Source of the DNA: Eledone cirrhosa
Lineage: Eukaryota
Direction: 5' to 3'
DNA: 64,000 nt
Assembly: GCA_964016885.1 (NCBI GenBank)
Contig: OZ024747.1
Span: 16,740,001 to 16,804,000 of the forward strand
Part shown: in pieces, positions 7,971 through 56,017 of the stretch
Numbering within the stretch: the stretch's first letter is position 1
How the letters are laid out: every line of letters begins with the position of its first letter
Translations under genes and position numbers: made by a program
The notes under the pieces: model-generated
What the model was told of the DNA's origin: nothing
The model's input: only the letters and a program-made list of their open reading frames with translations
Database searches by the model: none

Positions 7971-9105
7971 AAACTAAACTCAGCAATACTAAATAAGTAC
8001 ATCCCTAATGACTCAGCGCACCAGCATAGCAACATACAACGCACTAACACGCAACTACAACCCCACCAAACTATCCAGGATTCTACTGCAAAACATAAAA
8101 ATAATTGTAACTGCACCAAACCAGGTACGTGCCCACTGAATAACCAGTGCCTAGCACGCAATATTGTCTACCGATGTACAATAAATTCCGGAACCAACAA
8201 ATGGTATTACGTCGGATGTACCGCAACTTCTTTCAAAGCTCGCCTATACCAACATCGATCTTCGATCAGGCACGAGAAAATGCGCTCCGTAACAACCCTC
8301 GCCGATAAAGCCTGGCAGCTCCGGAGGAACAATCAAGCATTCTCCCTTGATTGGCAAATTATTGCATGCTGCGCCTGCATATAAGCAAAATCATCGTATC
8401 TGCAAGTTATGCAATTTGGAGATATACTGCATTTTAACGTCGGTAAACAAACTTTTGAACAGCAAAATTGAACGTTCTCTATACTGTAACCATCGTTTGA
8501 AAACGACTTTTTCTTTTTTTAAATGCATATAATGTTACCTTTTTACACCACCGTTTGCAAATTTCTGTTTTATATGTTTATACACAAGATATGGCTTTCT
8601 ATAATAATAGTACTAAACACTGTTTTCTGGACCCCTTTAGAAATAATCTGCTACTATAATAGCCCCAATAACTTGTCTGTAACTCTGTACCACTTTGACC
8701 CCTTTAACTAAATTTTGTCCGAACAACACCACTAGAAGAATTTACTTCCCCCGCCAACCCTAACACGCCTCATTAACTAACTGCTGCCAAAACATTCTCT
8801 CCTTACAATCTCTACTAGTCTGACAGTCTTAAATCCTAGGACTCCCTCCACCTTACTCACTTCCCTCTTCCCCTTCACTTCCTACCTCCTTCTTTCTCTT
8901 TCATCTAGTGTATAAAATATTTTCATATCATTCCAATACAAAGGTCTGACGACATGGTGTGTGTGCTTACAGTGTACCTTCGGTTTATTATAATATTTTT
9001 ATATTATTCAAATAGCGAGGTATAGGTAACCTATACACTATAGAAACAATTGTTACCTAATAAATTCTTTATACCCGCATTTCCATTTCATAAACTTCTT
9101 CTCCA
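7971..9105 (+). mobile_element. 5'-truncated PLE (related family): GIY-YIG pseudogene plus 3' UTR
   Basis: CNCTKPGTCPLNNQCLARNIVYRC..WYYVGCTATSFKARL, then a frameshift near 8365, then CKLCNLEIY..YCNH stop 8532. Clearly homologous to the 47.1-47.5 kb ORF end. Flanked by (TA)n. Confidence 0.9.
8942..9058 (+). ncRNA. Type I hammerhead motif, long stem II
   Basis: aggt-CTGACGA-(90 nt, atggtgtgt/atacactat)-GAAA-caattg-TT-acct, followed by AATAAA. Confidence 0.75.
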
Positions 9106-10551
9106 TATATATATATATATATATATATATATATATATATATATATATATATATATATATGTGTATATATGTATATATATATGTGTGTGTGTGTGTGTGT
9201 GTGTGTGTGTGTGTGTGTGTGTGTGTGTGTGTGTGTGTGTGTGTGTGTGTGTGTGTAATTAATGGCAGACGAAACAAGGACAATGGGGAACACACAACAT
9301 ATCCATTTTGGTCAGCCGACTTGTGGAGGTCACTACGATTTCAATTTTTTAAAGTTCGATCATTCCCTTCGGGTCTCACGGGCTTACAATACGACAAAAT
9401 ACGATAGCATAGGACATAGTCGTCTTTCTGTGAATGTACACAAAATAAAAAGAAAACGTCTACTAAAATCCAGAGGGTTTCTAAGTATAAACAAACAAAA
9501 ATGAAATGAAATACAGTGTACAAAAACAACTAAACCGAAGGGAAATTAAAAAAATTGAGAAACAAATGAATGTGGTACTTAATCCTGAGACGAGAAAGGA
9601 TCATGAGATAAATATCTAGGTCAGCCGAAGAATAAATAGAATAAAGTGCATGTGGTGTTACGTCGAGAAAGAAAAGTGGTGAGGAATAGACAGAAAGAGA
9701 CCGAAATGTACAGGAAGGAAAGAAAGAAGGATAAAATCCTCATCTCTATACGAAAATACAATAATGCGATATTGCAATGAGAGAATTGGATATGCTAATT
9801 AAATATCCCTAGCTATATTATGCAGCTGTCACTTATTAGAATTACTGTGCACAAAACAATACTAGATTCAAATACTGTATGATGTTTTATAGGTCGAAGG
9901 TCAGACCTGAATGGTTTTCATAGAGTTACGCTTGATGGAAAGCAATTTAATTCTTCGAACATATGGTGTATCATTACATTTCCTTTTCTATTATTTCTTT
10001 TGACACATTACTCTGCTATCGCAAGACATTTATTAATCAATCAATGCCCATTATTCATTATCCGATATGTCCATATTGGTAAAATATTCAAATTAAAACA
10101 AAACTTGAAAAGCGATGAAGTGGGTGTTGAAATGACAAAAAATATATCATTACCTATTTCAAAAGACACGCCAAGAATTATTTCTTCTTATTTATTAGAT
10201 ATATGACGTGTATAAGAAGCAGATACATATTACAATATTGGTAAAGATTCGCAGTGCAAATTATTGGAAGAAAAAAATTAACTCGACTACAGCTAAAACT
10301 ACATTGTACTACTTAGAAGATAGTGCTATATATGTCCTTTGAGATTTTGCATAAAATGGTAATATATTACACGAATGTTAATGATAGTAGATACTATATA
10401 TATATATATATATATATATATATATATATCCACTCTTTCTCTCTCTCTCTCTCTGTCTCTCTGTCTCTCTCTCTCTCTCTCTCTCTCTCTCTCTCTCTCT
10501 CTCTCTCTCTCTCTCTCTCTCTCTCTCTATGCATATATATATATATACTTT

Positions 10552-10645
10552 AAGGCCCAATATTGACCAGAAAATGTTGTCAATATTGGGCCTTGAATTC
10601 TTAGGTAATGCTTTTGTTCTGTGTATGAATATAAAGAAATAAGCT
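10552..10645. repeat. Mini hairpin (16-bp arms) plus ~50-bp tail in (TA)n
   Basis: aaggcccaatattgac / gtcaatattgggcctt. Confidence 0.65.
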
Positions 10646-54671: not shown

Positions 54672-55137
54672 GCAAAAGTTTTATTTAAAATTGTTGGGTT
54701 ACAACAAGTAAATATTTTATAACTGATATAAAGCACTCAACAAGTTTTGGAGTAGATATACGATATTAAACAAATGGAAACTATATTTATAAAACCATAT
54801 TCATTTCATTATACATATTTCGGGGATACCATATTAAAAATATGATATGCCTTCTTCAGATAAAATACAATATATAAACAGTTTTATAAATAATTTTGAC
54901 GTACCATAAATATTGAGCAACCGTTATATAGGATGCCGGTTTGGTAGTGTTAACCGGCTTCCTATATAACGGTTGCTCAATATATATGGTACGTCAAAAT
55001 TATTTATAAAACTGTTTATATATTGTATTTTATCTGAAGAAGGCATGCCATATTTTTAATATGGTATCACCGAAATATGTATAATGAAATAAATATGGTT
55101 TTATCAATATAGATTCCATTTGTTTAATATCGTATAT
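54672..55137. mobile_element. Hairpin element family B (arms 54756-54941 / 54952-55137, tail 54672-54755)
   Basis: Homologous to 13327-13776 with the same short-arm end point but a different centre. Confidence 0.85.
55027..55090 (+). ncRNA. Type I hammerhead motif (mirror on minus ~54803-54866)
   Basis: attttat-CTGAAGA-aggcatgccatatt..aatatggtatcacc-GAAA-tatgta-TA-atgaaat. Confidence 0.75.
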
Positions 55138-55442
55138 AGATATATATTTATATATATAATATATATATATATATATATATATATTTATATATATAATATA
55201 TATATATATATATAATATATATATATATAATATATATATATATAATATATATATATATAATATATATATATATATATATATATATATATATATATATAAA
55301 TATATATATATATATATATATATATATATATATATATATATATATATATATATATATATATAATATATATATATATATAATATATATATATATAATATAT
55401 ATATATATAATATATATATATATAATATATATATATATAATA

Positions 55443-56017
55443 TGTAGATAAATCTACCAAGAGTTTACGGTAGTGTCCAATCCGTATGAAGAACTCAATG
55501 TATTCCGGATATCATGGAAAGAAGAGATGTAATGAAAAATCACTTTCGGTGAAAGATAAACGGTATACAGAGTCAAGATAAAATATTAAACAAATAATGA
55601 ATAAAACAATGAAACAGTTCCTTATATTAAACAAAAAAAGTTCATTATTTAACGATCGTTTCTAGGATATATATGTGTTAGAATTGGTATGCATATTCAA
55701 CAGATCTATGTACAAAATTATACAGAATTATACAAACTATCAAGATTAAATATACATACCAACACATATATACGCCGTCTTCAGAAATAATGAAATATAT
55801 TTCATTATTTCTGAAGACGGCGTATATATGTGTTGGTATGTATATTTAATCTTGATAGTTTGTATAATTCTGTATAATTTTGTACATAGATCTGTTGAAT
55901 ATGCATACCAATTCTAACACATATATATCCTAGAAACGATCGTTAAATAATGAACTTTTTTTGTTTAATATAAGGAACTGTTTCATTGTTTTATTCATTA
56001 TTTGTTTAATATTTTAT
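55443..56017. mobile_element. Palindromic PLE 3'-end insertion (arms 55578-55797 / 55798-56017) with one-sided tail 55443-55577
   Basis: Spacer-less ~220-bp-arm palindrome between (TA)n tracts, homologous to the 39.2-39.4 kb PLE 3' UTR. Confidence 0.88.
55801..55954 (+). ncRNA. Type I hammerhead motif, 115-nt stem II (mirror copy 55641-55794 on minus)
   Basis: ttcattattt-CTGAAGA-(115 nt)-GAAA-cgatcg-TT-aaataatgaa, with a 10-bp stem I. Confidence 0.82.

Follow-up and report, generated by a model that had tools for sequence, protein, structure and literature searches.

Long stem II arms with a conserved internal loop in hammerhead motifs of Hydra-clade Penelope-like elements from Eledone cirrhosa

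What would a hammerhead ribozyme do with a stem II of up to 115 nt, and is such a motif a hammerhead at all? The question is raised by a 64,000-nt stretch of the Eledone cirrhosa genome (assembly GCA_964016885.1, contig OZ024747.1, positions 16,740,001 to 16,804,000; hereafter the window, numbered from its first letter), in which an earlier note, made from the letters alone, had pointed to seven hammerhead motifs with a palindromic stem III and a giant stem II insert and had linked them to Penelope-like elements (PLEs). Following up that note, we find that the window hammerheads sit in the terminal repeats of PLEs of the Hydra clade, for all four families considered (A to D), and that the long stem II with its conserved loop is a lineage-specific variant of the known hammerheads of this clade.

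Six complete type I hammerheads with long arms

A scan of all CTGANGA sites combined with a type I descriptor returned six complete long-arm hammerheads in the window, each built in the order stem I-CUGANGA-arm-GAAA-hexamer-UH-stem I, with a stem I of 4 to 10 bp. The family B motif (8942..9058, plus strand) carries a 90-nt arm (8953-9042) and the hexamer CAATTG, with a predicted cut after 9054, and the family C motif (39273..39411, minus strand) a 102-nt arm and CGATCG, with a predicted cut at 39282 and a (TA)n end 64 nt on. Family A occurs at 43322..43438 (minus; 88-nt arm, CACGTG, predicted cut at 43327, (TA)n end 42 nt on) and at 48489..48605 (plus; 88-nt arm at 48501-48588, predicted cut after 48600). 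Family C' likewise occurs twice, at 55641..55794 (minus; predicted cut at 55651) and 55801..55954 (plus; predicted cut after 55944), both with 115-nt arms; the former lies in the left arm of a perfect, spacerless 220-bp palindrome (55578-56017) in which two ends of family C' meet head to head. The six matches represent four insertions, two pairs being inverted duplicates. The palindrome itself bears a tail on one side and a (TA)n end on the other.

The strict descriptor matched six times in the window and not once in any of 200 block-wise dinucleotide shuffles; with the palindrome rule dropped, the window still gave six matches, against a single match over all 200 shuffles. Arm folding z-scores of these motifs lay between -4.0 and -8.0, and the hexamer was palindromic in all six, in agreement with the earlier description of stem III as mostly a palindromic hexamer. 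The note had all seven cited motifs keeping the hammerhead order, and six of them indeed display the full set of type I features (CUGANGA, GAAA, UH cut site, three helices and an open stem I). The seventh, a family D copy with a 62-nt arm (41248..41340, plus strand), is decayed: AAAA replaces GAAA, the hexamer is the non-palindromic CAACTG, and the arm folding z-score is only -1.3. Its family is nevertheless intact, with GAAA present in 10 of 12 other family-D copies among the matches listed (13 of 30).

Two of the earlier terms need adjusting. The 62 to 115 nt given for stem II hold as arm lengths, but they measure stem plus loops of an imperfect hairpin and not a continuous helix; and stem III, having a palindrome of six bases, does not fit what Cervera 2014 calls minimal (PMC4209133). 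That standard descriptors would miss such motifs holds for Rfam. The Rfam hammerhead models gave no match at gathering score in four loci, and in the window at E ≤ 10 no hammerhead was among the matches listed (150 of 317), which were instead microsatellite-driven microRNA and chance matches.

The hammerheads belong to Hydra-clade Penelope-like elements

Four of the window motifs, from three families, have a GIY-YIG region upstream on the same strand, much as the earlier note had reported. A full family-A unit at another locus, L122, reveals the whole element: a hammerhead, 210 nt, a frame of 772 aa, and a second hammerhead 3,580 bp past the first. The encoded protein contains RWK, DKT and YRDD motifs, a CxCX5C linker, a C-terminal GIY-YIG region and a CxxC-E-N-CxH arrangement, features that match those described for the Hydra clade by Craig et al. 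(PMC8557442). This reverse transcriptase-endonuclease (RT-EN) occupies a single frame with the GIY-YIG at its C terminus, has 296 homologues at E ≤ 1e-20, and agrees by eye with published Hydra proteins. Pfam returned nothing for the 565-aa and 772-aa proteins, and a solved-structure search gave no match.

The CxCX5C linker (spacing 4 to 5 residues) and the CxxC and CxH around conserved E and N recur in families A, B, C and D. Families B and C are joined to a Hydra endonuclease, and D is so through its 3' untranslated region (UTR); N-terminal motifs of the RWK and DKT type were not recovered for B and D. The attribution to PLEs with a palindromic stem III is supported, and all four families tie to Hydra-clade elements. 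Further traits of the clade were found as well: (TA)n serves as the insertion target, and terminal repeats, a tail and inverted truncated copies occur. The element ends meet (TA)n 42 to 70 nt past the predicted cut site, and farther where a tail is present.

Within the window, family B is represented by a remnant with the Hydra CxCX5C linker and GIY-YIG (7995..8384, plus strand; Pfam GIY-YIG E 5.5e-4, under the curated cut-off; the Hydra C-terminal profile match ends at 8381) and by a 3' segment (9059..9105, plus strand) that begins with AATAAA and meets (TA)n 51 nt past the cut site. A broken Hydra endonuclease region of family C (40106..40519, minus strand) lies upstream of the 39273..39411 hammerhead. 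Family A contributes two 5'-truncated copies, each with a frame, 3' UTR and terminal repeat: an inverted one (43283..45911, minus strand; RT-EN frame 46001-44391) and one on the plus strand (45907..48755; RT-EN frame 45837-47534) that adds a tail of ~110 nt and is 98.7% identical to L122. In families A, B and D, AATAAA overlaps or adjoins the 3' strand of stem I (in the window at 9059 and 48601, and in family D copies); lying beyond the cut site, it may be a polyadenylation signal.

Other carriers were considered and rejected. A Naiad or Chlamys PLE would have an N-terminal endonuclease and a DKA motif, while here the endonuclease is C-terminal and the motif DKT; family D is not a Naiad either, since it links to a Hydra endonuclease. 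Retrozymes of the kind without long terminal repeats (non-LTR), which consist of non-coding units a few hundred bases long in tandem, do not fit, as the four window families all tie to Hydra coding sequence. Hydra frames upstream of hammerheads with 14-, 18- and 26-nt arms were judged to be nested family-B copies. A scan of metagenome contigs with a single protein and one of viral contigs with an alignment found no relatives. In contigs from four sequencing runs of unspecified kind there were no joints or ends, which has no bearing on expression.

The arm is an imperfect hairpin with a recurring non-Watson-Crick loop

The stem II arm proved to be an imperfect hairpin in which covarying helices are interrupted by a recurring non-Watson-Crick loop, A-D-U / Y-A-G. 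Families A and B have it twice, about one helical turn apart, family C once, and family D in a variant form. In the window, the paired loops lie at 8971-73/9023-25 and 8983-85/9013-15 in family B, and at 48520-22/48569-71 and 48532-34/48560-62 in the plus-strand copy of family A; single loops occur at 39357-55/39338-36 in family C and at 55857-59/55887-89 in family C', and the decayed family D copy has the variant at 41275-77/41308-10.

Clustering of 193 distinct motifs gave 64 clusters. Group II comprises the 78- to 97-nt arms that include families A and B (26 arms, three of them added by eye). These follow the order basal helix, variable internal loop, 5'-A-D-U-3' / 5'-Y-A-G-3' twice, and variable hairpin. 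The outer loop shows A.G in 24 of 26 arms, N.A in 24 and U.Y in all 26; the corresponding figures for the inner loop are 23, 26 and 24. In 14/26 the two loops stand 11 nt apart on the 5' side and 10 nt apart on the 3' side, approximately one A-form turn. While the loop bases are held, the pairs flanking them swap (U-A 18 and C-G 7; C-G 12 and U-A 10), and the helix between the loops is paired in 123 of 156 cells, compared with 52 to 80 when slid. The group II motif scored 13.5 of 14, against 11.4 ± 0.1 in 10 rounds of shuffling, and the two loop adenines were invariant already in an unanchored MAFFT alignment. The placement of one arm (L261) differs between two scripts. The 3' half-pattern of the loop alone matched the genome 12,294 times, versus 37 in the control, and in family C a single loop was present in 5/5 representatives tested.

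Group I (56 to 63 nt, family D) has the variant loop G-AGU-C / Y-GAG-C. In an alignment of 22 sequences, 80.6% of cells were paired versus 70.1% when shuffled (0/500 shuffles as high) and 30 to 41% when slid, and double-change cells numbered 62 versus 28. The registers of the loop do not fit a k-turn, a selenocysteine insertion sequence (SECIS) element, a loop E or a sarcin-ricin motif, judged by eye against the consensus, and these identities were rejected.

The insert is several arm types (rod, double-loop rod and three-way junction) and not one domain. The last type was seen in arms of 95 to 97 nt at L369:1275(-), L370:277(-) and 1020(-), and L136:8140(+); some of these sit in same-strand copies 0.75 to 1 kb apart, no Hydra frame was found with them, and they are possibly non-coding retrozyme-like repeats.

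Stem III, the base of stem II and folding

Among 61 representatives, stem III was fully palindromic in 39, and its two unconstrained inner bases were complementary in 44. The 8-nt palindrome formed by A, hexamer and U has a self-duplex energy of -6.4 to -10.3 kcal/mol, while stem III within a monomer adds less than 1 kcal/mol. The inverted window copies, being on opposite strands, could not dimerise within a single transcript; for tandem copies, L121 and L122 among them, this would be possible.

The base of the arm deviates from the usual hammerhead. Window motifs have a C.A or A.A mismatch there instead of G10.1-C11.1, a point absent from the earlier note, and the base in the 61 representatives is G-C in 10 and a mismatch in 37, so that the usual purine-pyrimidine arrangement at 10.1-11.1 does not hold for these motifs. 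A U.U mismatch at this position is found in natural hammerheads, in which it supports more cleavage than other mismatches (PMC3088659).

Long-arm motifs are abundant, and one family is young

The genome searched comprises 3.0 Gb. A first look gave 314 candidates for family A, 1,041 for B, 1,840 for C and 2,124 for D, with 40 of each scored. Family A is young: all 40 of its scored DNA matches were identical, and 150/150 scored protein matches were 99 to 100% identical, many of them in 785-codon frames.

An unbiased 600-kb sample, made up of 60 evenly spaced pieces of 10 kb each, yielded 62 hammerhead calls whose arms ranged from 12 to 101 nt; five arms were at least 50 nt, all with a palindromic stem III. 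Shuffling the sample (12 rounds) gave 0.17 long calls per shuffle and no palindromic one. Genome-wide, the pattern CTGANGA-spacer-GAAACRNNYGTH had 38,673 matches over four spacer bins versus 938 for the reversed control: 10,545/308 for spacers of 37-65 nt, 6,393/129 for 66-87 nt, 17,278/194 for 88-114 nt and 4,457/307 for 116-146 nt. These are matches and not loci, the bins can overlap, and a 115-nt spacer falls outside them. Arm length forms a continuum from 12 to 116 nt in the genome, and family C' lengthens by 10-nt slippage, from 116 to 126 nt. An invariant A preceding GAAA is seen in the window but not across the genome, and was discarded as a feature.

The long arm compared with known hammerheads

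The long arms seen here are two to five times those of relatives from other organisms. The 26 Hydra rows in File S2 of Craig 2021 all have 12 to 26 nt between the boxes (PMC8557442). Published Hydra hammerheads share with ours the clade motifs, the (TA)n targets and the type I topology near the 3' end, as well as the frequent U.U at the base of stem II and a stem III mostly opening with A-C; they differ in a mostly 7- to 8-nt non-palindromic stem III insert, where we find a 6-nt palindrome, in arms of 12-26 nt rather than of 56 to 116 nt with a conserved internal loop, and in units generally below 3 kb, compared with 3.6 kb and long UTRs here (PMC8557442). Among 77 Hydra loci from metagenome contigs, 53 gave hammerhead calls, and 52 of these had arms of 10 to 29 nt; the remaining 79-nt call, inside an open reading frame (ORF) and with a variant core, was judged to be chance. 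Re-inspection of 25 metagenome Hydra loci found seven short arms, two of them clipped by the contig end, and one possible ~45-nt arm (L505, from another organism, 115 nt past the ORF and with no clear GAAA); the rest were truncated or blank.

The longest PLE arms that we found in print are those of Selaginella PLE-X1, two rows at ~48-54 nt between the boxes that are marked as deviating in File S2 of Craig 2021 (PMC8557442). They belong to another, endonuclease-free clade and to single families, they have no palindromic hexamer, and no shared loop is reported for them (PMC8557442). Metazoan PLE hammerheads with a minimal or small helix III resemble ours in that they too lie in terminal repeats, have a short helix I and a palindromic helix III, fall under a dimer model and are expected to be of low activity, yet have a helix II of 6 to 8 bp, a conserved G10.1-C11.1 and one extra 5' base, as opposed to a long arm with a mostly mismatched base (PMC4209133). 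Animal non-LTR retrozymes likewise have type I hammerheads, a weak helix III and kinship to PLE terminal repeats, but are non-coding tandem repeats with a short helix II, whereas the window families are coding elements or truncated ends (PMC7229834; bioRxiv 10.64898/2026.07.22.740005). Where PMC13725137 speaks of a "long helix II", 6 to 8 bp are meant.

Neither such arms nor the A-D-U / Y-A-G loop was found described in the parts of the literature searched; long-arm examples could be present in Lunse et al. 2017 or in the supplementary material of Cervera 2014 and of the bioRxiv preprint. Of the suggestion that we face an undescribed variant carrying an extra RNA domain, what survives is a conserved arm structure that this literature does not describe; the clade is a known one, the spike-moss arms are already listed, and the insert is of several types. 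File S1 of Craig 2021 carries the mark HHR_half_core for several Naiads, including two from cephalopods (PMC8557442), and descriptors with a short spacer may be hiding long or permuted hammerheads in them.

Regarding the origin of the arm, we built a quick tree of 74 endonuclease regions over 150 columns, 18 from this genome and 56 of 109 homologues (Hydra-like only). One branch, with a weak Shimodaira-Hasegawa-like approximate likelihood ratio test (SH-aLRT) value of 84, unites D, C, a 98-nt family, group II and two rows with no hammerhead assigned; group II itself has a support of 99, and a 36-nt arm family falls just outside the branch. On this tree the long arms may have had a single origin. 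At L124:7601-8640(+), a Hydra endonuclease is followed 987 nt on by a hammerhead with a 36-nt arm and TGCGCA, possibly an intermediate or sister state.

Other features of the window

Another family of hammerheads, which has an arm of 30-31 nt, a stem I of 8 bp and a stem III containing TATATA or TATGTA, occurs in short inverted pairs at 13515(-)/13675(+) and 54859(-)/55034(+), and at 17673(-); a coding partner was not found for it. The inverted pair 38805(-)/38946(+) is hammerhead-like with an 18-nt arm and an odd stem III (GAAC), and is frequent in the random genome sample. At 2349(-) lies a decayed group I hammerhead, not listed in the earlier note, with a shortened arm and AAAA for GAAA that retains CAATTG. 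A 315-codon frame at 5240-6187(-) has a CxxC...HxxxxC motif, which we take to resemble the C-terminal zinc finger of long interspersed nuclear elements (LINEs).

Discussion

The reading that we rate somewhat better than even is that these are type I PLE hammerheads, predicted to cut as dimers via the palindromic stem III, with an arm whose A-D-U / Y-A-G loop is likely a protein docking site. Transcripts spanning tandem repeats would bring two motifs together, the 8-bp palindrome would pair between them and complete the core, and the weak stem I together with the mismatched base of stem II would hold cutting slow unless a protein assists. After cutting, the unit-length RNA would carry the arm at its 3' end. 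Since the element ends lie past the cut site, the template was presumably uncut or re-ligated RNA, as for Poseidon PAc (PMC11167929); reverse transcription would start downstream of the cut site, and a protein bound to the arm would lie ~75-140 nt upstream of that start. A role of the arm as an internal ribosome entry site (IRES) after cleavage was rejected because the arm remains on the upstream product.

Poseidon PAc offers a parallel for protein assistance, as its hammerhead cuts only with the element protein present (PMC11167929). There, too, reverse transcription begins inside the RNA downstream of the ribozyme, giving a tail; Poseidon is of another clade, however, the site proposed for binding falls within the first 172 nt of its ORF, and its stem II is dispensable for insertion in vitro (PMC11167929, Frangione et al. 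2024). As for what might bind the arm here, the element's own RT-EN is a tentative candidate, and a host RNA-binding protein an unlikely one. A more specific version strikes us as doubtful: the loop would be an undescribed RNA recognition module for the telomerase-like RT-EN that was inserted into the ribozyme and that, in one sub-lineage, came to occur twice at a distance of one helical turn, so that a protein dimer binds one face of the helix.

Several observations weigh against docking and dimeric cutting. The mismatched base of stem II may weaken catalysis, and the minimum-energy fold differs from the active fold in every window motif. Other Hydra elements manage with 10-29 nt arms, and insertion of Poseidon tolerated a 5' truncation to +20, a point beyond the start of stem II (PMC11167929). 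Arms of 95-97 nt fold as three-way junctions in which the loop is absent by eye, as it is from a 98-nt arm. Our counts moreover lean toward the model, because the representatives had to pass a filter on stem I and basal pairing, the group II table takes the motif and the pairs flanking it as anchors, and the sequences share ancestry. As to covariation of the stems, swaps of flanking pairs and the overall pairing of group I speak for it, yet group I pairs with double changes numbered 17 against 13.9 in shuffles, a value matched by 32 of 500 shuffles, and RNAalifold returned no consensus structure for that alignment.

Could the loop instead touch RNA? As a tertiary brace, it would dock on stem I or on the dimer partner, replace the loop I-loop II contact and let the arm speed or gate cutting without protein. 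Natural hammerheads do use contacts between helices I and II (PMC3088659), RNA-RNA docking sites typically have conserved non-canonical pairs, and the loop lies invariably within stem II. The geometry is harder to reconcile with such a brace: the loop lies 12-14 nt from the core in D, 15-24 nt in the case of the outer loop of group II, and 38-42 nt in C, a range of 12 to 42 nt that a fixed tertiary contact would not tolerate well, and stem I is just 4-10 bp with freely varying sequence. Group II, besides, has two copies of the loop. This varying distance and the repeat at one turn make a protein docking site the more likely function, and we consider a brace improbable.

Less probable again is that the arm is tolerated baggage, lengthened by fold-back duplications during reverse transcription and kept by selection as a closed hairpin, with a loop shared by ancestry. 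The continuum of arm lengths and the 10-nt slippage in family C' are what such a process would leave, inverted duplications are common in these elements, and the long-arm families fall on one weakly supported branch; but the loop bases are fixed while adjacent pairs swap, the mismatches show no drift toward pairs, and the loop is common to families A and C although their endonuclease regions are ~33% identical. We give still less credence to a core that no longer cuts, the motif serving as a folded scaffold or a 3'-end signal beside AATAAA while the element uses uncut RNA. Every element end is indeed found beyond the cut site, mismatches prevail at the base of stem II, and Poseidon insertion in vitro needed no cleavage, with no reads ending at the site (PMC11167929). 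A dead core would hardly explain why motifs downstream of at least five divergent endonuclease lineages preserve CUGANGA, GAAA, the palindrome and UH, and the natural U.U mismatch, with the more efficient cleavage cited above (PMC3088659), takes force from the argument from the base.

Engineered aptazymes make use of stem II, and the motifs described here indicate that natural hammerheads, too, can carry large structured inserts at this place. Ribozyme censuses based on Rfam or on short-stem descriptors can miss tens of thousands of motifs in a single animal genome. For the elements themselves, how PLEs recognize their RNA, and why their hammerheads are weak and protein-assisted, can be tested directly on a family that is young, has intact frames and keeps a conserved loop. 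If the loop is indeed a recognition module for the RT-EN, it would be the first defined cis-binding element of any PLE and would couple the gating of the ribozyme to internal initiation of reverse transcription.

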